IMG/VR virus record: IMGVR_UViG_3300045988_153201 | Coordinates: 1 to 5,558 of that record | DNA from: a virus | DNA: 5,558 nt | Reading direction: 5' to 3' (one strand) | Shown: one piece after another, positions 1 to 5,558 of the stretch | Position numbering within the stretch: the first letter of the stretch is position 1 | Layout of the letters: the number at the start of each line of letters is the position of its first letter | The notes under the pieces: generated by a model | Told to the model about the DNA's origin: nothing | Databases searched by the model: none | Seen by the model: only the letters and a program-made list of their open reading frames with translations | Program-made: the position numbers and the translations under genes

Positions 1-24
1 AAAAAAAAAAAAAAAAAAAAAAAA
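1..24. repeat. poly(A) homopolymer, 24 nt (T24 on the coding/minus strand); it touches the window edge so its true length is unknown
   Basis: Direct reading: 24 consecutive A before g25. Confidence 0.95.
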
Positions 25-27
25 GAA

Positions 28-67
28 CTCCCCTGACCCCCTACGGGGGCACGGGGAGAACTTTTTT
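28..67. terminator. Bidirectional intrinsic terminator: GC hairpin flanked by A24 on one side and T6 on the other
   Basis: Outer stem c28-c33 / g53-g58 (6 bp). t34-a51 and g35-c50 pair with single-nt bulges. Inner stem c37-c41 / g45-g49 (5 bp) closes a TAC triloop. On the minus strand the hairpin sits 10 nt after the Zot-like stop (71..69) and is followed by TTC+T24. On the plus strand it is followed by T6 (62-67). Confidence 0.7.
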
Positions 68-68
68 C

Positions 69-692
69 TCACTCCGAAGGATACTTGCTGATAACCTGCT
101 CTGTATCGTATTCTAAGGCACTTACCCGCTTTACAGATTTGGGGATGGTATACCATCTTGCCCGGCCTGCTTTGCGCACCGTGTTAACCAGTTCTTGGCC
201 TCCCTCGGGGCGATGTTCCATAGCAATACAGGAGCGATAAGGAGTAAGGCGACAAAACCAGCCAATGCGGTTGCAAAGATAAATGTGGTCGCAGAGGTCA
301 CGAATCTTTTTATCAAAGTCCATGGTCTGAGACGATACAATAATCGTCAAATGATATTTACGCTGCATCTTAAAAAACTCAACAGCTTCGCGGGGCATAG
401 TTTTAAAATCACGGTTAGAGTGAAGCACGCCGATTTCATCGATAAGAATAAGGGAATCGGGAAGAAAAGTTTGTTTCCAGTATTCAGGCTCTAACTCATA
501 ACCAATACCCATATTGCTATAAATAAGCCCCTTATTAGCACGTAGCCACTTATCAGCAACACGAGACATATACAGAGACTTACCAGAGCCTTTTGAACCA
601 ACAACAGCCTCAAGCTTGTAGGGGTTTTTGCAATAATTATCAATATATACAAATAGCCAGCAAATACAAAAGAAAAGAATACCATAAAGCAT
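69..692 (-). CDS. Zot / pI-like filamentous-phage assembly ATPase (P-loop NTPase), short form with an N-terminal hydrophobic segment
   Basis: 207-aa ORF. Walker A is GSKGSGKS and Walker B-like is SLILIDEIG. QRKYHLTIIVSSQ...KKIRDL resembles the HRHxGxDIxxxTQ...IR block of the Zot family (PF05707, from memory). SD GAAAGG lies 10 nt upstream of ATG 692. It is the last gene of the operon, as gene I is in inoviruses. Confidence 0.8.
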   Translation of the reverse strand: MLYGILFFCICWLFVYIDNYCKNPYKLEAVVGSKGSGKSLYMSRVADKWLRANKGLIYSNMGIGYELEPEYWKQTFLPDSLILIDEIGVLHSNRDFKTMPREAVEFFKMQRKYHLTIIVSSQTMDFDKKIRDLCDHIYLCNRIGWFCRLTPYRSCIAMEHRPEGGQELVNTVRKAGRARWYTIPKSVKRVSALEYDTEQVISKYPSE

Positions 693-714
693 AACATATA
701 ATCCTTTCTAAAAT

Positions 715-760
715 GAGAAAACGTCGCCGACCATTTAAAAATGGTCGGCGGCGTTTTCTC
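715..760 (-). terminator. Long near-perfect hairpin (~21 bp stem) between the coat-like ORF and the Zot-like gene: candidate attenuator/terminator, alternatively a packaging signal or minus-strand origin
   Basis: g715-c760 pairs inward through t735-a740, with one T.G (plus) / A.C (minus) position at 724/751. On the minus strand it begins 7 nt after the TAA at 770..768 and is followed by AUUUUAG, the Zot SD and ATG 692. Confidence 0.45.
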
Positions 761-767
761 TCAATTC

Positions 768-896
768 TTAGGAACGACCGGGAATCCAGCGGCGCAGAAT
801 GCGAAGCACGACACCAGCAATCATAAGAAGAACGAATACAAGGAGAATCGGCTGAGCTTCATAGAAGTCCAAGAGCTGACCCATCCAAGTAATCAT
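768..896 (-). CDS. Small coat-like membrane protein (candidate major coat protein). Conservative ATG start gives 42 aa; the frame is open up to 959 and may start at CAG 956 (62 aa), see findings
   Basis: Manual translation: MITWMGQLLDFYEAQPILLVFVLLMIAGVVLRILRRWIPGRS*. It has an acidic N-terminal part, one hydrophobic helix and an Arg-rich C-terminus, the pVIII/Pf3-coat architecture. It is below the 60-aa cutoff of the ORF track. ATG 896 has only a weak, distant SD. Confidence 0.55.
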   Translation of the reverse strand: MITWMGQLLDFYEAQPILLVFVLLMIAGVVLRILRRWIPGRS

Positions 897-997
897 CTGG
901 GTGAAAAAATCACCGACCTGAGAAAGCAGAGTAGCAATAGTAGAGGTAGCGGCCTGAAGTCATCATCCTTTCATAAGATTTTTTTTATGGACACCTG

Positions 998-1111
998 TCA
1001 CGGACGGAGCAGGAGAACCAACAAAGAAAAAGCACCAGCAAAAACGATAAAATAGCCAATCTCGGGAACTGAAAATATGCCGAAACAATACTGCAAAGGG
1101 AGAATTTCCAT
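998..1111 (-). CDS. 37-aa hydrophobic protein (pVII/pIX-like size class), translationally coupled
   Basis: Manual translation: MEILPLQYCFGIFSVPEIGYFIVFAGAFSLLVLLLRP*. Its ATG shares the A of the upstream TGA stop (TGATG at 1113..1109). One predicted TM helix. Confidence 0.5.
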   Translation of the reverse strand: MEILPLQYCFGIFSVPEIGYFIVFAGAFSLLVLLLRP

Positions 1112-1719
1112 CAACTCATGCGCCCCCAAATCGCGTTTTTAATCCATGTAACAGAAGTAACGAAGACAAGGACAACAAGCAGAGCAGAAACGCAAGCTTG
1201 CGGGTTGAGAACTTGTGAAGTAGTAGTGGAATCTTCCTCGTAAGGTAGTTGAATAAGTTGAGTCGAACTGTTATAGGAATACCGTTCGGACGTATAACCG
1301 GACTTGTGGACCGTCTCACTACGTTCAATAAAAAAAGTGTCTCCGAACCAATCCATAATAGCAGTGAAACTATTAGAGACGTTAGGGAGATTAGCATACA
1401 AAGCCGGAGTATCTGCGGCGCGGTCATCATAAGCAGTTAAGCTCCCTTCGAAAGGCAATTCTTCTTCCTGCGACACATAACCTTCGCGAAGGTCGGGACT
1501 TTCGGTAATGTTCTGCGAAGGCTCAGCAGGAGACGTTTCTTCCAGCTGAGAATCAGCAGAAGAATTAGCATCCAAGTCGGAGACGGCATTCGCCGATGCC
1601 TTGAGATAATCAAACTGCTCCACGGTCATATCGCAAGTACTACCATCTTTATACTGCACAGTGTAGACGGTAACGCCGTCAGAATCAACCCAAGTTTTGA
1701 TAATAGCTGGGACTTCCAT
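1111..1719 (-). CDS. 202-aa acidic protein with a C-terminal transmembrane anchor and no N-terminal signal peptide; function unknown (possible minor virion or assembly protein)
   Basis: ORF-track ORF. SD-like GGGGGTGA lies upstream of ATG 1719. The start overlaps the previous stop (TAATG). A Ser/Asp/Glu-rich central linker is followed by the C-terminal hydrophobic stretch ACVSALLVVLVFVTSVTWI. Confidence 0.75.
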   Translation of the reverse strand: MEVPAIIKTWVDSDGVTVYTVQYKDGSTCDMTVEQFDYLKASANAVSDLDANSSADSQLEETSPAEPSQNITESPDLREGYVSQEEELPFEGSLTAYDDRAADTPALYANLPNVSNSFTAIMDWFGDTFFIERSETVHKSGYTSERYSYNSSTQLIQLPYEEDSTTTSQVLNPQACVSALLVVLVFVTSVTWIKNAIWGRMS

Positions 1720-1886
1720 TATTTTTCACCCCCATCCCAAAGGCCACGGAGAACAAAGCCAACAAGCGAAAGCAGAAGACAAACCAAAATAAAGTTGCCA
1801 AAAGTACCGAAACCAAAAAAGGAAATAGAAAGCACGTTGGCGATAAACGAGGTAAAAACACCAAGAGCGGAAACAAAGTCTACCAT
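1719..1886 (-). CDS. 55-aa protein with two hydrophobic helices (pVI-like small membrane/virion protein candidate)
   Basis: Manual translation: MVDFVSALGVFTSFIANVLSISFFGFGTFGNFILVCLLLSLVGFVLRGLWDGGEK*. SD TAAAGG lies 10 nt upstream of ATG 1886. It overlaps the upstream ORF by 7 nt and the downstream ORF by 1 nt. Confidence 0.6.
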   Translation of the reverse strand: MVDFVSALGVFTSFIANVLSISFFGFGTFGNFILVCLLLSLVGFVLRGLWDGGEK

Positions 1887-2011
1887 GGCAACCAATCCTT
1901 TACGAACTTATAAATACCGAGGCCGACAAGAAAAACAACAACGGCAATAACGAGAGCGCCACCAGAACCAAAAAGGCCAAAGACCGAATTGAAGAAATCC
2001 AGAAAAGTCAT
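1880..2011 (-). CDS. 43-aa single-helix hydrophobic protein (second coat-like candidate)
   Basis: Manual translation: MTFLDFFNSVFGLFGSGGALVIAVVVFLVGLGIYKFVKDWLPW*. ATG 2011..2009 overlaps the TGA 2010..2008 of the 394-aa ORF (ATGA coupling). SD GAAAGG lies 10 nt upstream. Confidence 0.6.
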   Translation of the reverse strand: MTFLDFFNSVFGLFGSGGALVIAVVVFLVGLGIYKFVKDWLPW

Positions 2012-3192
2012 CCGTCGACCGCCTTTCTAATGAGCATTCGGAGAACAACAGCACCGAAGCAAAGGAGAGAAACAGAAAACAGGAATGCACCTAAGTTCTG
2101 AAAAAGCCCGCCAAGAAGACCAGAAGCGGCGGAAGCAACGTCAGAATCAACAGAATCAAGGCCATTAATAGCTTCATCAAGAAAAGACTCAGAATCACGA
2201 ATCTTAGTTTCGACATCATATCTATCCAAAAGGGAATCACGCAAAGAATCAAATTCGTCAGAAGCGGGGAAAGAATCACCGACATTCAAACCAGCCGGGA
2301 GCTTATTAGCATCAATCCAGAAACTGAGACGAATAGAGAATTTGAGAGTTTTCCCATCAAGGGACAAATACTGAGCATCTGACCAACCTTCCATATCAGG
2401 AAGAATAAGCCATTGCAAGGAAGAAAGAGAAGCATTCGGCACGGTATCAAGATGAGCCCAAGAATAATGTTGTTGATTCTGATTCAAATGCAAAACATAC
2501 TGAGCATTCCAAAGGAGAGAAACAGAAGGAGAAGAAGAAGGCAAAGAAATAGAAGGGCCGGAAATAGTAAAATAATCACCACCGGAACCAGAATTATTAT
2601 CAAGCTCACCTAATCTAGAAGGAGAAAAAGTACGAACAACATAAAAAGGGGAAGCAGAACTAAGAAAAGTATCAGCACTGGAAGAACCAGAACGCCGACG
2701 GATAACTTCGGAAGTAGAAATATCAAAAGAATACGTTTTATTTTGGGGAACTAAATAAAAAGAAGAAATCGAATTAAAAAGAGAAGAAGTACCAGAGGAA
2801 ATAATTTCCGGACTGTCTAACTCAACATAAGAAGTACGACCAAGGGGCAAATCAGCACGCCACCAGTCAGGATAATTAACAGGGCAAGCCCAGACTTGGA
2901 CAAAGTCGTGATAGGGAGAATCACGAGAACCATCATAAAAAGTGTTCAGGTAAGAAGAAAAAAAAGTTTCGAAAGTAGCAGCATAAACTTCACCGTTGAC
3001 ATATGGTGAAAGATGAAGATAAGGAGTTAAAGTACCACTCTCACCATACATATCACGCTTATCAATAACGACCCACTCAAAAGAAGATGCATTATTGGAA
3101 GCAAACGCAGGAACACAAAAAGAAGAACAAACAATCAGAGCCGCGACAAGGGCAGCGAAGCGCTTATAAAAACACCGCTGCTTTTTTTTCAC
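2008..3192 (-). CDS. 394-aa secreted, C-terminally membrane-anchored protein; putative pIII-like adsorption / minor coat protein
   Basis: GTG start with SD GAAAGGTGGTGG at 10-nt spacing. The N-terminal signal peptide is MKKKQRCFYKRFAALVAALIVCSSFCVPAFA|S. Ser/Gly-rich linkers include NNSGSGGD and SLPSSSPSVS. The C-terminal TM is AFLFSVSLLCFGAVVL followed by basic residues. The architecture matches gene III proteins, but no sequence homology can be asserted. Confidence 0.7.
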   Translation of the reverse strand: MKKKQRCFYKRFAALVAALIVCSSFCVPAFASNNASSFEWVVIDKRDMYGESGTLTPYLHLSPYVNGEVYAATFETFFSSYLNTFYDGSRDSPYHDFVQVWACPVNYPDWWRADLPLGRTSYVELDSPEIISSGTSSLFNSISSFYLVPQNKTYSFDISTSEVIRRRSGSSSADTFLSSASPFYVVRTFSPSRLGELDNNSGSGGDYFTISGPSISLPSSSPSVSLLWNAQYVLHLNQNQQHYSWAHLDTVPNASLSSLQWLILPDMEGWSDAQYLSLDGKTLKFSIRLSFWIDANKLPAGLNVGDSFPASDEFDSLRDSLLDRYDVETKIRDSESFLDEAINGLDSVDSDVASAASGLLGGLFQNLGAFLFSVSLLCFGAVVLRMLIRKAVDG

Positions 3193-3220
3193 TTCGCCAC
3201 CACCTTTCGCGACATCGAAT

Positions 3221-3239
3221 AACGGAGGTCACATCCGTT
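3221..3239 (-). other. Small hairpin immediately 3' of the tRNA
   Basis: AACGGA (3221-3226) pairs with TCCGTT (3234-3239) around a 7-nt loop, 1 nt downstream of the encoded CCA end on the minus strand. Confidence 0.4.
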
Positions 3240-3240
3240 T

Positions 3241-3314
3241 TGGTTGCGGGGTTAGGATTCGAACCTACAGTTTCGCGTTCAGAGCGCGACGTGCTACCGT
3301 TGCACCACCCCGCC
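3241..3314 (-). tRNA. 74-nt tRNA with anticodon CUG (Gln by anticodon) and an initiator-tRNA(fMet)-like acceptor stem and anticodon arm; CCA encoded
   Basis: Reverse complement: GGCGGGGTGGTGCAACGGTAGCACGTCGCGCTCTGAACGCGAAACTGTAGGTTCGAATCCTAACCCCGCAACCA. Cloverleaf: acceptor 1-7/66-72 with a G1xA72 mismatch, U8, D stem GTGC/GCAC with G18G19, anticodon stem TCGCG/CGCGA, loop C-U-CUG-A-A, T stem GTAGG/CCTAA (G49xA65), T loop TTCGAAT, A73, CCA. Confidence 0.85.
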
Positions 3315-3318
3315 ATGT

Positions 3319-3338
3319 GAGAGCGGCGAACCGCTCTC
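3319..3338 (-). other. 8-bp GC-rich hairpin with a UUCG loop (minus strand) 4 nt upstream of the tRNA 5' end
   Basis: GAGAGCGG (3319-3326) pairs with CCGCTCTC (3331-3338). No U tract follows, so it is not a canonical terminator. It may be a processing or stability element between ssb and the tRNA. Confidence 0.5.
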
Positions 3339-3374
3339 CCACAGGAAATGAAATTGGGGTTTGAACAAAGGAAG

Positions 3375-3617
3375 TTAAACTTCCTCAATTCCGAGAAGAT
3401 AACCGTTACGGTCAAAGTCAAGATCGTACATAGCGCCGACAACAATAAGCGCATACGGCATCATGCGAGCATCGACATTGATTCTATCAACCTGCACACC
3501 GACATTGTCATCGTTTGCACGCATCGAATATTCGGCCATGAGAGTAGTAAAATCATAGTCTTTGCCCTGCTTAGTAGTACCAGCGCGGCGGGACTTACCA
3601 ACTACAGTAACATTCAT
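3375..3617 (-). CDS. 80-aa putative ssDNA-binding protein (gene V analogue)
   Basis: Size (about 80-90 aa) and position directly after the Rep gene match inovirus gV. SD TGAAAGGATGG lies upstream of ATG 3617. The assignment rests on synteny and size only. Confidence 0.5.
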   Translation of the reverse strand: MNVTVVGKSRRAGTTKQGKDYDFTTLMAEYSMRANDDNVGVQVDRINVDARMMPYALIVVGAMYDLDFDRNGYLLGIEEV

Positions 3618-3635
3618 ACAGCGACCATCCTTTCA

Positions 3636-4772
3636 TCAGAATAAAGATATATCATCAAACCCGACTTCACTAAAGGGAGAGGGGTCATCAGCAAATTCGC
3701 GAAATTCCTCAACGGCAATGCGCGAAGACTCAGAAAATTGCGCGACTTCCTGTGTTAACGCAAGAGGGGAGAACGGAAGACGCTCATTATAATACCGTTC
3801 CCACTTACAACAAGCGAGGAAAAGAAGCTCAGGACGATAAAGCAGGATATCAATGATACGATGACCGAAGACGTTAGCAACATAGGACATTTTTTGCTCC
3901 TCGGTATGGATAGAGACGGAGAATTTCTTAGCAAGGTCATCACTAAGAGGACACAAAAAGTCATCAGTGTAACGAATTCCGCGTGCTTCAATATCGGTTA
4001 CGAACTGCATATCATCCCAGCCATCGGGGAGAAGAGTTTCATTCCCGTAGCGATTCCAAACTTTACGAAGATAGGAAAAAAGCTTCTCAGGGTCTTCATA
4101 ATAAGACCAAAAGAGCGGAGATGGGTCATAAACAGTACGACCGGAAGAATTCACACGAGAAGTATATTTCAACTCCATCTCGTAACGAATGATATAAGAA
4201 TCATCGGGACAATCCAAAAGCTCACCAGAAGCCACACAAAGCTTTTTTTCGGGGTCTTGAAGGGACTTATTATAGATACGGCAGAAGACAGCAGATGACG
4301 TTCTACGACCGATATAAACGGTAGTGGAATCGCCGTAGCCCTGATACATGAATTTGCGAACCTTACGGGCTTTTTCGGGAAAATTCATCTCATCAACGGA
4401 AGCAGAGATAACACCCAAATAAAACTCGCGCCACCGTTGCTTTGTCATAACAACATCAAAACAAAAGTCAAGACGAGAAAAATGACCAAATTCATGACCT
4501 TCTTGCATCAATGACGCGAGACGGGGCAGGGTAGGACGGAAAAGCTCACAACCATGACCAGAAACATGTAAAGAATGCGGAGACAGTTTCGAGCCGTTAT
4601 TCGGTTTATAGAAGAGTCCCGCAGGAGAATTACAAGGGGAATTCTCACTTGCGTTGGAAGTCTGCGAAAAATGCAAATCACACTGAGCAAGAGAATCTTC
4701 GATTTTGGAAATAGAAATTGAACCCTGCTCAAAAGCAAAAGTAGCATAATCAAGTTTAACAACAATTTTCAT
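3636..4772 (-). CDS. Rolling-circle replication initiator, Rep_trans family (PF02486; RstA / pT181 RepC-like)
   Basis: Family-typical blocks are KLDYATFAF, LHVSGHGCELF, FSRLDFCFDV, TVYIGRRTSSAVFCRIYNK and IIRYEMELK. I place the start at ATG 4772 (MKIVVKL...) because SD GAAAGGTGG precedes it and the track's ATG 4814 lies upstream of the -10 box of the only visible promoter. The stop is a double TGA TGA. Confidence 0.9.
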   Translation of the reverse strand: MKIVVKLDYATFAFEQGSISISKIEDSLAQCDLHFSQTSNASENSPCNSPAGLFYKPNNGSKLSPHSLHVSGHGCELFRPTLPRLASLMQEGHEFGHFSRLDFCFDVVMTKQRWREFYLGVISASVDEMNFPEKARKVRKFMYQGYGDSTTVYIGRRTSSAVFCRIYNKSLQDPEKKLCVASGELLDCPDDSYIIRYEMELKYTSRVNSSGRTVYDPSPLFWSYYEDPEKLFSYLRKVWNRYGNETLLPDGWDDMQFVTDIEARGIRYTDDFLCPLSDDLAKKFSVSIHTEEQKMSYVANVFGHRIIDILLYRPELLFLACCKWERYYNERLPFSPLALTQEVAQFSESSRIAVEEFREFADDPSPFSEVGFDDISLF

Positions 4773-4804
4773 GTGAGAAAACCACCTTTCATTTCCATGG
4801 CTAA

Positions 4805-4833
4805 ATATTACCACAGTAAGAATGAATTGTCAA
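4805..4833 (-). promoter_or_regulatory. Near-consensus sigma70/sigmaA promoter for the rep-to-zot operon
   Basis: Minus strand reads TTGACA (4833..4828), a 17-nt spacer ending in TGg, then TAATAT (4810..4805). That is an extended -10 about 33 nt upstream of ATG 4772. Confidence 0.7.
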
Positions 4834-4895
4834 GAGAAAATATCAATACGGGGGACGGGGAGACGAAGTAACAATGGCCAGCACGCGCACGAACT

Positions 4896-4914
4896 GCCGC
4901 AAAAGGCCGCAAAA
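4896..4914. repeat. Tandem GCCGCAAAA repeat (2 copies, 10-bp register), iteron-like
   Basis: GCCGCAAAA at 4896-4904 and 4906-4914, separated by a single G. Confidence 0.5.
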
Positions 4915-4967
4915 TTTCTTCCAGCCTACCCGACCGCACGCAACCAACAGCGCAACGGAAACCTATG

Positions 4968-5005
4968 CCAGTCTGTATTGCAAGGGCAAGGGCTTTGCCC
5001 TTGCG
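4968..5005. repeat. Direct repeat R1 (38 nt) containing an 8-bp/TTT-loop hairpin; origin-region element
   Basis: CCAGTCTGTATTGCAAGGGCAAGGGCTTTGCCCTTGCG. The stem is 4986-4993/4997-5004. 34/38 positions are identical to R2. Confidence 0.8.
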
Positions 5006-5012
5006 AAAAATT

Positions 5013-5039
5013 CGTGGGCGTATTACACGCACGCCCACG
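5013..5039. other. 9-bp hairpin with a 9-nt loop (ATTACACGC) between R1 and R2; candidate Rep nick-site hairpin
   Basis: CGTGGGCGT (5013-5021) pairs perfectly with ACGCCCACG (5031-5039). Confidence 0.5.
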
Positions 5040-5080
5040 TTCCCACCGTCACGTTAGACACTACGTAACAGAAGCCCCTA

Positions 5081-5118
5081 CCAGTCTGTTTTGGAAGGGC
5101 AAAGGCTTTGCCTTTGCG
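5081..5118. repeat. Direct repeat R2 (38 nt) with the equivalent hairpin
   Basis: CCAGTCTGTTTTGGAAGGGCAAAGGCTTTGCCTTTGCG. The stem is 5099-5106/5110-5117. The R1 G:C pair (4990:5000) is replaced by A:T (5103:5113), a compensatory change. Confidence 0.8.
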
Positions 5119-5191
5119 GGGACGGGGGACGCGGTGGAGACGCTATCGCGTGAGTAAACGTGGAAACTACCTGAAAAAAAAAATACTGGAG

Positions 5192-5240
5192 CAATAGAAA
5201 ATCCTATTGACAAATAGAAATTTCTATGCTACAATAGAAG
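5192..5240 (+). promoter_or_regulatory. Operator-like array overlapping the orf78 promoter
   Basis: AATAGAA occurs at 5193, 5213 and 5233, exactly 20 bp apart. A perfect 14-bp palindrome ATAGAAATTTCTAT (5214-5227) fills the promoter spacer. The inverted pair CAATAG (5192-5197) / CTATTG (5204-5209) overlaps the -35 box. Confidence 0.6.
5207..5235 (+). promoter_or_regulatory. Near-consensus sigma70/sigmaA promoter for orf78
   Basis: TTGACA (5207-5212), a 17-nt spacer ending in TGc, then TACAAT (5230-5235). An A10 tract at 5174-5183 lies upstream. ATG 5265 follows with SD GAAAGGAG at 10-nt spacing. Confidence 0.75.
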
Positions 5241-5264
5241 CATAAAAGGAAAGGAGATAAACCA

Positions 5265-5501
5265 ATGAAAGTCAAAACTGAATTTCTCAAAAAGGTCTTC
5301 GAAGAAAAAACAGTCTACACGAAAAACTATCAATACAAAGCAGTTAAATATACCGCAGTCAACGAAAAAGAAGAGTTTTATGACTTTTTTTTCATCAAGC
5401 GTATTGACATTAACTACGTTGATACAACAAGATATCTAGACGAAATCTTCTGGGAGACCATCGCACAGACAAAAGATGGAAAAACATTCTCAAGATTCTG
5501 A
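5265..5501 (+). CDS. 78-aa hypothetical protein, the only plus-strand gene, divergent from rep; candidate regulator by position
   Basis: Strong SD (AAAGGAAAGGAGA) and a consensus promoter. Its position mirrors divergent repressor genes (for example rstR versus rstA in CTXphi). I recognise no HTH or other motif. Confidence 0.75.
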   Translation: MKVKTEFLKKVFEEKTVYTKNYQYKAVKYTAVNEKEEFYDFFFIKRIDINYVDTTRYLDEIFWETIAQTKDGKTFSRF

Positions 5502-5505
5502 AACG

Positions 5506-5534
5506 AAAAAAAAAAAAAAAAAAAAAAAAAAAAC
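5506..5534. repeat. poly(A) homopolymer, 29 nt
   Basis: Direct reading: it starts 4 nt after the orf78 TGA (5499-5501) and is followed by CCCAAACCCCCAACAGGGAACGCGA. Confidence 0.95.
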
Positions 5535-5558
5535 CCAAACCCCCAACAGGGAACGCGA

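Follow-up and report, generated by a model that had tools for sequence, protein, structure and literature searches.

To our knowledge, a start codon that is defined by a virus or a strain through a matching initiator tRNA has so far been known only from engineered Escherichia coli. The CUA mutant of the E. coli initiator tRNA is loaded with glutamine. When the anticodon of an E. coli initiator tRNA is changed, initiation takes place at the codon that pairs with the new anticodon, as described for the metY-CUA tRNA and UAG (PMC6393288), and later reports extend this to the anticodon variants GAC, AAC and others (PMC11744186; bioRxiv 10.1101/2021.05.25.445580). The 1x72 mismatch is a known determinant for formylation, avoidance of EF-Tu and resistance to peptidyl-tRNA hydrolase (Pth), and a CUA initiator whose three G:C pairs had been changed to UA/CG/AU gave no initiation in a normal background (PMC6393288). 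No earlier report of a phage tRNA defining a start codon was found in the literature searched.

The tRNA gene described here is carried by a tiny gut filamentous phage, represented by a DNA stretch of 5,558 nucleotides (positions 1 to 5,558 of the IMG/VR record IMGVR_UViG_3300045988_153201), which is called the window throughout. In the preliminary description of this DNA it was proposed that the tRNA, rather than serving as an ordinary elongator tRNA-Gln, is a candidate initiator for CAG, and this is supported by an invariant CAG placed by a Shine-Dalgarno (SD) sequence, by the lack of a canonical start and by covariation of anticodon and start codon. Based on sequence comparisons, we consider it probable (at about 0.72) that the phage tRNA is a non-methionine initiator tRNA decoding CAG as the private start codon of a putative coat gene. 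The tRNA gene and its surroundings comprise the following features:

3241..3314, minus strand: tRNA gene, 74 nt including the encoded CCA (ARAGORN, Rfam RF00005, covariation in 27 distinct homologues)
3314 and 3245, minus strand: G1 opposite A72 (Rfam alignment register)
3244 and 3243..3241, minus strand: A73 and the encoded CCA (Rfam alignment register)
3268 and 3252, minus strand: G49 opposite A65 (Rfam alignment register)
3280..3282, minus strand: anticodon CUG, in the loop C-U-CUG-A-A (ARAGORN, Rfam), unchanged in all homologues of the window clade
3222..3238, minus strand: small hairpin ACGGA-N7-UCCGU, 3 nt after the CCA and followed by UUAUU, kept in most relatives
3317..3342, minus strand: conserved GC-rich hairpin GUGGGAGAGCGG-UUCG-CCGCUCUCAC, whose end lies 3 nt ahead of the 5' end of the tRNA
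2008..3192, minus strand: 394-aa signal-peptide protein, highly variable (possibly a pIII-like adsorption protein)
4805..4833, minus strand: sigma-70-like promoter TTGACA-17-TAATAT with a TG extension, ahead of rep
69..692, minus strand: Zot-like assembly ATPase, identifying the element as an inovirus

The 74-nt tRNA with a canonical fold and a CUG anticodon, as initially described, was borne out by both programs used. ARAGORN called the sequence (minus strand, 3314..3241: GGCGGGGUGGUGCAACGGUAGCACGUCGCGCUCUGAACGCGAAACUGUAGGUUCGAAUCCUAACCCCGCAACCA) as tRNA-Gln(CUG), and the Rfam tRNA model RF00005 matched it with 53.1 bits (E = 1.2e-9), above the gathering score of 29; relatives of this tRNA reach 50-55 bits with the same model. 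The drawing produced by ARAGORN, which is off by one base and shows a perfect 7-bp acceptor stem, a U8:A65 pair and a 4-bp T stem, was rejected. The register with G1xA72 and G49xA65 is preferred because 49:65 is U:A in 4 and G:C in 2 of the 27 distinct relatives while U8 is constant, because the CCA lies directly 3' of position 73, and because the cellular homologues have a U1:A72 pair in the same register. Two-sided changes were found in 12 of the 21 pairs among the 27 distinct homologues of the window clade, and in the shuffle control the observed values were reached in none of 500 runs. Going by these alignments, the structure is more than chance and represents a well-folded tRNA under selection. 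The gene always lies directly upstream of the gene for the 394-aa protein. The hairpin in front of it shows compensatory variants in relatives with the p80 module and is a possible processing or attenuation signal, and the promoter ahead of rep probably drives an operon that includes the tRNA and the coat gene.

For the comparison with initiator tRNAs, the metZWV genes located beside mltA in one RefSeq E. coli genome served as the tRNA-fMet reference, and conservation was counted over the 27 distinct sequences of the CUG clade and, separately, over 60 metagenome copies. The tRNA-fMet sequence used in the preliminary description agrees with these genes, and so do the details drawn from it: positions 2-10 and the final 11 nt are the same in both tRNAs, the anticodon arm differs only by the pair 30:40 (G:C to C:G) and anticodon positions 35 and 36, and U11:A24 and G49xA65 are present in the window tRNA. 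Full-length identity to E. coli tRNA-fMet is 76%; among the matches listed, the top ones in E. coli were genes for initiator tRNA-Met, with 78-79% identity and a median of 4 places in each genome. As to the initiator hallmarks said to be kept, the unpaired 1x72, G2:C71, C3:G70, G4:C69 and A73 stood, but the run of G/C pairs at 28-31:39-42 did not, as it varies within the clade. Position 1 is G in 21 and C in 6 of the 27 distinct sequences and A72 and A73 are invariant, which leaves 1x72 unpaired in 27/27; the metagenome copies (G in 47, C in 13) give 60/60. The formyltransferase determinants G2:C71, C3:G70, G4:C69 and A73 are all invariant across the clade. The CAU anticodon and methionine identity of tRNA-fMet are absent, CUG being constant in their place. 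Three G:C pairs at 29:41, 30:40 and 31:39 (GC/GC/GC) occur in 0/27 distinct sequences: the window has GC/CG/GC, shared by 4, AU/CG/GC is the commonest pattern (9), others occur as well, and 29:41 is A:U in 22/27. Also A11:U24 is missing, U11:A24 being invariant among the 27 distinct tRNAs. The missing G:C pairs and U11:A24 count against the initiator reading, and so does the acceptor end of the relatives with NGU anticodons, in which the discriminator 73 is C or U; in these, 4:69 is G-U, and three of them (L044, L161 and L163) have a U1:A72 pair, which likewise counts against it.

The nearest cellular homologues of the window tRNA are elongator tRNA-Gln(CUG) genes of Patescibacteria, taken from metagenome-assembled CPR genomes assigned to Ca. 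Gribaldobacteria, Pacebacteria and Saccharibacteria (loci L034-L039). Full-length identity is 81-86% to the four closest of them and 79% to the Saccharibacteria copy, and reaches 87-98% over the 52 positions that remain without the anticodon arm, positions 1 and 73 and the CCA. The window tRNA has the YUG anticodon and the Gln-type body of an elongator tRNA-Gln (G10, compact D arm, short variable loop), and this body counts against the initiator reading. U1:A72 and G73 are known identity elements for GlnRS/GatCAB; neither is found in the phage tRNAs, every copy having G or C at position 1 and A at position 73. In an alignment against fMet and Gln tRNAs, proposed earlier as a check, the initiator-like acceptor end was recovered, but the body is closest to tRNA-Gln(CUG) of Patescibacteria and not to tRNA-fMet. 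With isotype affinity judged by identity to reference tRNAs, this closeness means that an isotype model would probably call Gln. On this comparison, the initiator-like part of the window tRNA is specifically its acceptor end, and the molecule looks like an elongator tRNA-Gln(CUG) with a converted acceptor end (U1 to G or C, G73 to A). Descent from tRNA-fMet was considered and is not supported, the body being nearer to tRNA-Gln(CUG) of Patescibacteria than to initiator tRNAs of E. coli or of phages. A genome scan for a host with the tRNA pattern matched only chromosomal tRNA-Gln genes of CPR bacteria. The Zot-bearing contigs are all episome-sized, apart from one tRNA-less prophage in a Clostridia genome; a 50-kb metagenome contig with phage DNA looks chimeric.

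The second element of the proposed pair lies before zot, where the following features were distinguished:

768..956, minus strand: coat-like ORF of 62 codons (the extension is coding; N-termini of ATG-type homologues align there)
954..956, minus strand: CAG, proposed start codon and exact complement of the tRNA anticodon (SD spacing, conservation)
966..957, minus strand: spacer between SD and CAG, ATGATGACTT, 10 nt
960..965, minus strand: two in-frame stops, TGA TGA, between the SD and CTT-CAG
967..972, minus strand: SD GAAAGG of the coat-like gene (spacing compared with the other genes of the window)
725..750, minus strand: strong intrinsic-terminator-like hairpin, directly after the coat-like gene

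The in-frame TGA TGA excludes an upstream start in the coat-like frame, and downstream no ATG, GTG or TTG occurs in this frame before codon 21 (the internal ATG at 896). The 10-nt spacing of the CAG agrees with that in the six canonical AAAGG-led genes of the window, where AAAGG is followed by 10-12 nt and ATG or GTG, and in two GGGGG-led genes, with 9 and 11 nt. Every one of the 77 related genomes in which the start region was read has the CAG at this place, with the codons on either side varying, and at the other Gln codons of the gene CAG and CAA alternate between relatives. The extension from the CAG to ATG896 is 54, 57 or 60 nt long in all genomes, each length being divisible by 3. A pN/pS of 0.26 was obtained for the CAG frame vs 1.04 and 2.80 for the other two, and the variable columns of the extension number 9, 6 and 16 by codon position. 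By these measures the 54-60 nt after the CAG evolve as coding sequence. An SD-defined noncanonical start complementary to the anticodon, with no canonical start available, is what was found here for an orthogonal pair. A search with the SD-CAG signature, the CAG itself being part of the query, gave 14 extra contigs, and tRNA(CUG) was present in 10/10 of those that include the rep/p80-p394 junction; the 4 without the tRNA were dismissed as counter-examples, all being fragments without this junction.

Other starts were tried and set aside. A leader ORF from ATGATG with reinitiation at ATG896 does not agree with an extension that is coding in the CAG frame only. For an ATT or CTG start inside the extension, the distance to the SD would be 25-31 nt and not constant, and the Ile of the ATT candidate aligns with a Leu in the ATG-type homologues, whose N-terminus is further upstream. 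In the product the N-terminus varies, a hydrophobic helix is present and the C-terminus (RILRRWIPGRS) is basic. Its composition, its location before zot and the strong terminator after it would fit a pVIII-like coat protein (a class of ~50-65 aa), and no family match was obtained in Pfam and PHROG searches; the label "major coat protein" is putative, taken from size, composition, position and terminator. The mechanical ORF list gives only a 42-aa part of this ORF, from the internal ATG at 896. Gene callers, GenBank records and PHROGs miss the gene in these abundant phages of the human and pig gut, because it has no canonical start.

It was stated in the preliminary description that any tRNA in an inovirus of ~5.5 kb is unusual; this did not hold for the group, in which the tRNA is syntenic and widespread, and the suggested search of related inovirus contigs found it kept in more than 85 genomes. 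Across related inoviruses, anticodon and coat start codon change together: CUG occurs with CAG (also in L011/L012), CGU with ACG (L043, L044, L157/L158 and L161), AGU with ACU (L009) and UGU with ACA (L163). In the other lineages the noncanonical start codons always stand at AAAGG + 10 nt, and ten tRNA-less relatives have ATG at +9 to +12. The ACG of L043 aligns with the ATG of the tRNA-less L040, and in L161 a TGA stands directly 5' of the ACG. Coat proteins of differing start types align end to end, and in the Zot tree the tRNA/start types are interleaved. Several lineages also have an in-frame canonical codon at a distance of 1-3 codons 5' of this place (TTG in L044 and L157/L158, GTG in L011 and L163, ATG in L009), within the SD or too near to it, so these lineages are ambiguous on their own. 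The tRNA has a pyrimidine at position 37 in four relatives, and unusual anticodon-loop residues occur in the family. A viral scan for further CGU-type tRNAs brought nothing useful.

In the mechanism that we propose, the tRNA would be excised from the rep-to-coat transcript and charged according to its anticodon, with Gln via GlnRS or with Glu/Gln via the indirect pathway; the NGU variants of the relatives would take Thr. The unpaired 1x72 end would keep off EF-Tu and peptidyl-tRNA hydrolase and make the tRNA a substrate for formyltransferase and IF2, and the tRNA would pair perfectly in the 30S P site with the CAG placed there by the GAAAGG SD. The phage would then rely on its own tRNA for making the coat protein, whose first residue would be Gln, not Met. 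With slightly less assurance, we favour the wider reading that small gut inoviruses run a private initiation code, in which a non-methionine initiator tRNA derived from an elongator tRNA-Gln has an anticodon co-evolving with the coat start (CAG, ACG, ACU, ACA), in one lineage also with the start of the adsorption protein, and structural proteins are gated by the viral tRNA; if so, an orthogonal pair of initiator tRNA and start codon, and bacterial initiation with Gln or Thr, would each be seen in nature for the first time.

Several other explanations have to be weighed against initiation at a private CAG. The tRNA might initiate at the coat CAG and also elongate at internal CAG codons, its weak acceptor end being split between IF2 and EF-Tu; this would suit the elongator body of tRNA-Gln type, the unconserved three G:C pairs, the 23-27 internal CAG codons of the phage (by the ORF set counted) and the finding that, with slow formylation, a mismatch at 1x72 is not enough by itself to shut out EF-Tu fully in E. 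coli (PMC6393288). We consider it unlikely, as relatives switch the anticodon from Gln to Thr on the same body with codon usage unshifted, and the pyrimidine 37 of four relatives is atypical for A-site decoding. EF-Tu contacts the T-stem region in which the G49xA65 mismatch lies, which would also speak against elongation. Still less probable is an ordinary elongator tRNA-Gln(CUG) that supplements CAG decoding or replaces a host tRNA, with the coat gene started by unrelated means, even though bona fide tRNA-Gln(CUG) genes are its nearest cellular homologues, CAG is slightly favoured over CAA in the window genes and phage tRNAs are usually explained by codon supplementation (PMC10264068). The 1x72 position is unpaired in every copy and A replaces G73; a 74-nt insert, costly in a 5-kb genome, is nevertheless retained. 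This explanation also leaves unaccounted for a first coat codon that is the anticodon complement for four anticodons and ATG in tRNA-less relatives. Moreover, the CAG/CAA and ACG shares are alike whichever tRNA a phage has, or if it has none; codon supplementation is not supported, as the CAG or ACG share does not follow tRNA type.

A start at the out-of-frame ATG ATG (966..961) with a +1 shift into the CAG frame, where tRNA(CUG) would aid the shift or read the first codon, draws on the ATG or GTG present in the spacer of all window-clade members (ATGATGA, GTGATGA, ATGATAA). These ATGs lie 0-3 nt from GAAAGG vs 10-12 nt in the other AAAGG-led genes, however, the other frame is free of coding constraint (pN/pS 1.0 and 2.8), and other lineages have no out-of-frame ATG (L043 reads TTG-ATT-TAA, and L161 has a stop directly before ACG). 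The same spacer also forms the two in-frame stops, and a G-to-A variant in L019 is still a stop (TGA to TAA); altogether such a shift seems very improbable. Hardly more can be said for a counter-defence role, as a decoy for, or a nuclease-resistant substitute of, a host tRNA hit by an anticodon nuclease: evasion of tRNA-targeting defences has been put forward as a role of phage tRNAs whose anticodon loops are altered (PMC10264068) and this family has odd loop residues, but neither the covariation of anticodon and start nor the absent canonical start is predicted by it, and the change of isoacceptor identity between sister phages fits poorly with one targeted host tRNA. Finally, inoviruses can integrate at tRNA genes (PMC8530359) and their genome is packaged as single-stranded DNA, so that the element might be a non-functional attachment site from a host tRNA gene, or a hairpin for replication or packaging of the ssDNA. 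The tRNA is of full length and its gene encodes the CCA, the T and D loops are conserved and the anticodon never changes; the stems, instead of matching a host gene exactly, show compensatory substitutions. Together with the lack of an integrase in the window and the location of every copy on an episome-sized contig, this makes such an origin barely credible.

If initiation at a private CAG holds, a natural, virus-owned start codon would exist, set by a 5-kb virus through a matching initiator-like tRNA, and the identity of the start codon would not be fixed by the cell. Coat output tied to the level of a phage tRNA would suggest a new form of viral gene control, and the virion surface would carry a non-Met N-terminus. 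The pair would also offer a natural test bed for the minimal needs of an initiator, working without the three G:C pairs or A11:U24, and ready parts with which translation could be initiated orthogonally in Gram-positive or gut bacteria. Coat genes without a canonical start being overlooked, a blind spot of annotation is exposed as well.

Among the known systems, the engineered E. coli initiators share with the phage tRNA an initiator-type acceptor end and a non-CAU anticodon, with a complementary non-AUG codon behind an SD, and form pairs orthogonal to the AUG/fMet initiation of the cell, as is proposed for the phage pair. They are laboratory constructs with a tRNA-fMet body, the three G:C pairs and A11:U24, whereas the phage tRNA is natural, has a tRNA-Gln-type body and lacks both; unlike them, it is tied to one specific structural gene, a function that we infer from its sequence. 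With E. coli tRNA-fMet (metZWV/metY) it shares the unpaired 1x72, A73, an identical GCGGGG/CCCCGC acceptor stem and a nearly identical anticodon arm, and it differs by CUG instead of CAU, G1 or C1 vs C1 only, U11:A24, a 7-nt D loop, a 4-nt variable loop and unconserved three G:C pairs. The Patescibacteria tRNA-Gln(CUG) genes agree with it in the anticodon, the acceptor stem 2-7:66-71, the D arm, the 4-nt variable loop and the T arm, but they have U1:A72 and G73 and stand among other tRNA genes on contigs of 13-48 kb, whereas the phage copies have the G/C1 mismatch, A73 and an always encoded CCA. A compact phage tRNA(CAU), present on many IMG/VR contigs, has the same 74-nt layout, D-arm type and mismatched acceptor end (C, A or G1xA72, with A73) and also occurs on small phage contigs, but it has a Met anticodon and often GGG/CCC in the anticodon stem (three G:C pairs), and its identity to the window clade is at most 83% outside the anticodon arm. 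Phage tRNAs in general (codon supplementation, defence evasion, suppressors of recoded phages) are likewise carried by a phage and alter the decoding of phage genes; the others known act in elongation or at stop codons, whereas the window tRNA is proposed to act at a start codon.

The window is a near-complete, small inovirus genome, within which the following features were distinguished:

4772..3636, minus strand: replication protein of the Rep_trans type
minus strand, 5' neighbour of the tRNA: 80-aa protein (p80)
3314..3241, minus strand: 74-nt tRNA gene between p80 and p394 (ARAGORN and Rfam)
minus strand, 3' neighbour of the tRNA: 394-aa signal-peptide protein (p394)
minus strand: several small hydrophobic proteins
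692..69, minus strand: Zot-like assembly ATPase
4833..4805: promoter, probably of the minus-strand operon that includes the tRNA
3317-3342 and 3222-3238: conserved hairpins on either side of the tRNA
750..725: strong terminator after the coat-like gene

The sole plus-strand gene (5265-5501) encodes a 78-aa protein without a family match, conserved in some relatives and absent from others, which is probably a regulator; its near-consensus promoter (TTGACA-17-TACAAT, 5207-5235) is overlapped by a palindrome. The non-coding region separating two divergent promoters contains two 55-nt direct repeats (4951-5005 and 5064-5118, 82% identical), each with the GC-rich palindrome GCAAGGGCAAGGGCTTTGCCCTTGC (4980-5008 and 5089-5117), and these could represent an origin or a packaging signal. 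The A runs at both window ends (A24 at 1-24 and A28 at 5506-5533) are probably a single homopolymer at which the circular genome was linearised.

ARAGORN called the 3314..3241 gene a tRNA-Gln(CUG), and the Rfam tRNA model (53.1 bits, E = 1.2e-9) placed it in the register of the preliminary description, with G1 opposite A72, G49 opposite A65, A73 and an encoded CCA. The ARAGORN drawing, shifted by one base, was rejected on the basis of the family alignment, i.e., the variation at 49:65 (GxA in 21, U:A in 4 and G:C in 2 of 27 distinct sequences), the invariant U8 and the 1:72 positions, unpaired in 27/27. In these sequences the anticodon and T stems vary compensatorily, with 12 pairs changed on both sides, and in a shuffle test of pair covariation the observed values were reached in 0 of 500 cases.

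Homologues were searched for with exact and degenerate pattern scans and BLAST. The same tRNA occurs in related inovirus contigs: four pig-gut inoviruses of ~80% DNA identity to the window (MT135292, MT135293, MT135296, and MT135305), two more distant ones (MT135307 and MT135309), 23 IMG/VR contigs recognized by the specific tRNA pattern plus one (L111) from a broader scan, 10 further IMG/VR contigs, and 60 human-gut metagenome contigs. Nearly all are 4-6 kb long, and the tRNA is invariably localized just upstream of a p394 homologue, even where the replication module was exchanged. No variation occurs in the clade at the anticodon, acceptor stem, A72, A73, or CCA, and position 1 is occupied by G or C but in no case by U, making 1x72 a constant mismatch. 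The tRNA is conserved and under selection within a virus clade.

The GC-rich hairpin (3317-3342) stops 3 nt 5' of the tRNA, and the small one (3222-3238) follows the CCA. Copies with G1 are preceded by such a GC-rich hairpin, whereas most C1 copies are preceded by the promoter-like TGTATATAGCTATTT and two (L022 and L031) by other A/T-rich sequence; the identity of base 1 therefore tracks the mode of 5'-end formation. In the tRNA of one relative (L235, 1578-1646), the anticodon loop has 8 nt (CUACUGAA) and the D loop is shortened, reflecting either sequencing error or a variant. Position 37, adjacent to the anticodon, carries C or U in four lineages (L011 1650-1723, L043 640-713, L044 1914-1987, and L157 147-223); a pyrimidine at this site is very unusual among A-site-decoding tRNAs.

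The tRNA had been considered an initiator-tRNA(fMet) look-alike. The E. coli sequence used for that comparison is correct, as are all the identities and differences given, when checked against metZWV in a RefSeq genome; initiator tRNA-Met genes are the best matches in E. coli genomes (78-79% identity). A scan of 185,579 species genomes with a pattern comprising the acceptor strand, D arm, and anticodon gave six hits, all being chromosomal tRNA-Gln(CUG) of Patescibacteria MAGs (Gribaldobacteria, Pacebacteria, and Saccharibacteria), some adjoining other tRNA genes. They share with the phage tRNA the GCGGGG/CCCCGC stem, D arm, 4-nt variable loop, and T arm, and are 87-98% identical to it over 52 positions (excluding the anticodon arm, positions 1 and 73, and CCA) and 79-86% over the full length (the four closest 81-86%); E. 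coli tRNA-fMet reaches 76%, and the best-matching phage initiator-like tRNA(CAU) 77%. Since identity is higher to these tRNA-Gln(CUG) genes, which, unlike the phage copies, have U1:A72 and G73, the body of the phage tRNA is of Gln type; it departs from the elongator relatives consistently at position 1, at position 73, and in always having an encoded CCA. The formyltransferase determinants include 1:72 and 73, and an unpaired 1x72 keeps initiator tRNA off EF-Tu and protects it from peptidyl-tRNA hydrolase (PMC6393288). Among the proposed initiator hallmarks, the unpaired 1x72 and A73 are invariant, but the G:C run is not conserved: pairs 29-31:39-41 read GC/CG/GC in the window and AU/CG/GC in most relatives, with no instance of GC/GC/GC. 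The initiator-type 11:24 pair is absent, as already noted, its place being taken by U:A.

Many phage contigs, large and small (L047-L152; L013 3969-4041), carry compact 74-nt tRNA(CAU) genes in which A72 faces C, A, or G as base 1, position 73 is A, and the anticodon stem is often GGG/CCC; these look like phage-borne initiator tRNAs. Initiator-like tRNAs with other anticodons were found in L014 (2871-2947; MT835577, a 29-kb human faecal phage contig) and in L054 and L110 (IMG/VR, 55 and 21 kb); in one kind, the sequence is that of tRNA-fMet of the E. coli type, the T stem is damaged, and the anticodon is CAA, and the other kind combines C1xA72, A73, and CCA with the anticodon CCU. Initiator-like tRNAs with altered anticodons may extend beyond inoviruses.

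In a search for genes that would require such a tRNA, a codon complementary to the CUG anticodon was found at the proposed start of the coat-like gene. Just 5' of zot, the mechanical ORF list gives a 42-aa ORF (896..768, minus strand), whose frame is open upstream as far as two stops, TGA TGA (965..960), and reads GAAAGG-ATGATGACTT-CAG-GCC-GCT-...-CAG-ATG(896). There is no ATG, GTG, or TTG between these stops and codon 21. In the AAAGG-led genes of the window, AAAGG is followed by 10-12 nt and ATG or GTG, and the codon at +10 in the coat-like gene is CAG (956..954); a genome-wide scan (Shine-Dalgarno (SD) motif, 9-12 nt, CAG, ORF of at least 30 aa) matched this gene only. The stretch from CAG to ATG896 is translated: its length is 54, 57, or 60 nt (28 relatives and 46 further metagenome copies), its pN/pS is 0.26 in the CAG frame versus 1.04 and 2.80 in the others (0.14, 1.63, and 4.30 in the downstream core), and its variable columns number 9, 6, and 16 by codon position. 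CAG is kept in all 77 genomes in which the start region was read, while the codon before it (CTT, TTT, or CAT) and after it (GCC, GCT, GGC, GGT, ACT, ACC, ACA, or TCT) varies and the remaining Gln codons of the gene switch between CAG and CAA. In a reverse search of viral contigs by the SD-CAG signature instead of the tRNA (CAG thus being part of the query), 14 contigs not previously found were obtained; tRNA(CUG), in some cases too divergent for the tRNA patterns, is present in 10/10 of those spanning the rep/p80-p394 junction, and the four without it are fragments ending ahead of this junction.

Over its 62 aa, the product runs from a variable N-terminus through a hydrophobic helix to a basic C-terminus, and it matched no Pfam or PHROG family; together with the terminator, this layout is what would be expected for an inovirus major coat protein. 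In every case of a CAG or ACG start, the gene lacks an annotation or is truncated (GenBank MT135292-MT135309; Logan calls for L043 and L161), PHROGs contains no family for it, and standard gene callers overlook it systematically.

GenBank, ENA, and Logan assemblies supplied more distant inoviruses with this architecture (Zot 32-62% identical), whose tRNAs are homologous in body to that of the window and occupy the same position; in each genome, the coat-like gene was read at the codon lying 10 nt past AAAGG.

Anticodons and corresponding codons of the coat-like gene in distant relatives
L011/L012: anticodon CUG (C1xA72), codon CAG; in-frame GTG inside SD
L043: anticodon CGU (G1xA72), codon ACG; no alternative start available
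L161: anticodon CGU, codon ACG; in-frame TGA directly 5'
L044, L157/L158: anticodon CGU, codon ACG; in-frame TTG just 5'
L163: anticodon UGU, codon ACA; in-frame GTG inside SD
L009: anticodon AGU, codon ACU; in-frame ATG at +4

Four different anticodons are each matched by their exact complement at the same SD-defined site, the chance of which, even with five candidate positions allowed per gene, is about (5/64)^4 ~ 4e-5. Ten tRNA-less relatives (L040-L042, L045/L046, L154-L156, L162, and L164-L166) have ATG at +9 to +12, and in a codon-by-codon alignment the ACG of L043 falls on the ATG of L040, which lacks a tRNA. The alignment of the coat-like proteins is full-length and puts N-termini beginning with Q, T, and M at equivalent sites. 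In the Zot tree the tRNA types are interleaved, with L044 (CGU) and L163 (UGU), L040 (none) and L043 (CGU), and L011 (CUG) and L009 (AGU) as sisters. How often CAG or ACG is chosen over its synonyms is unrelated to tRNA type, which argues against codon supplementation as the role of the tRNA.

Directly after the tRNA(CGU) of L157 and L158 (MT135294 and MT135306), a ~433-aa signal-peptide (pIII-like) gene (242-1543 in L157) has ACG 10 nt after AAAGG(AGG), preceded by CTG in one genome and TCG in the other; the next canonical in-frame codon would lose the Arg-Arg start (basic part) of the signal peptide. This second gene may also use the private start codon.

Considering the host, one relative without a tRNA lies as an insertion in a Clostridia chromosome, where the neighbouring RadA is 65-66% identical to Clostridia MAG proteins, and published gut inoviruses of similar size were assigned to Clostridiales by CRISPR matches (PMC8530359). 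The GAAAGG SD is complementary to a 16S rRNA tail of CCUUUC. The tRNA(CGU) relative L161 encodes (4312-5094) a 260-aa protein with a Spo0A C-terminal domain, which hints at a spore-forming Firmicutes host and perhaps also at interference with sporulation. The Patescibacteria-like tRNA body does not fit this picture. In another contig (L179, ERZ826613 NODE-590, 50.7 kb; 1955 nt examined), DNA of ~60% GC, encoding an SLH-repeat surface protein as judged by eye, is joined to phage DNA starting mid-rep; as a host link it is unreliable, being probably an assembly chimera.

The earlier proposal of a candidate initiator reading CAG is strengthened and extended by the CAG start of the coat-like gene and the anticodon/codon covariation, and is corrected as to the origin of the tRNA and the G:C run. 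At the sequence level, the tRNA is selected and its acceptor end permanently unpaired, the first available SD-positioned codon of the coding region is complementary to the anticodon, and the two co-evolve. A natural, phage-owned initiator tRNA/start-codon pair is the most likely reading (probability of about 0.7). The tRNA would be processed out of the operon transcript (promoter 4833..4805; flanking hairpins), charged as the anticodon dictates, formylated, bound by IF2, and set on CAG in the P site, as engineered E. coli initiator tRNAs are at UAG and other codons. The phage might gain timing or dosage control of the coat protein, or a non-Met N-terminus.

Our literature search, of incomplete coverage, for phage or viral initiator tRNAs, non-canonical starts, and inovirus tRNAs returned only engineered systems and general phage-tRNA papers. 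Engineered E. coli initiator tRNAs start at UAG in the CUA/UAG system (PMC6393288) and, according to PMC11744186 and a 2021 bioRxiv preprint, act at other codons too. If true, the pair described here would be new as a natural system, with a mechanism that has laboratory precedent.
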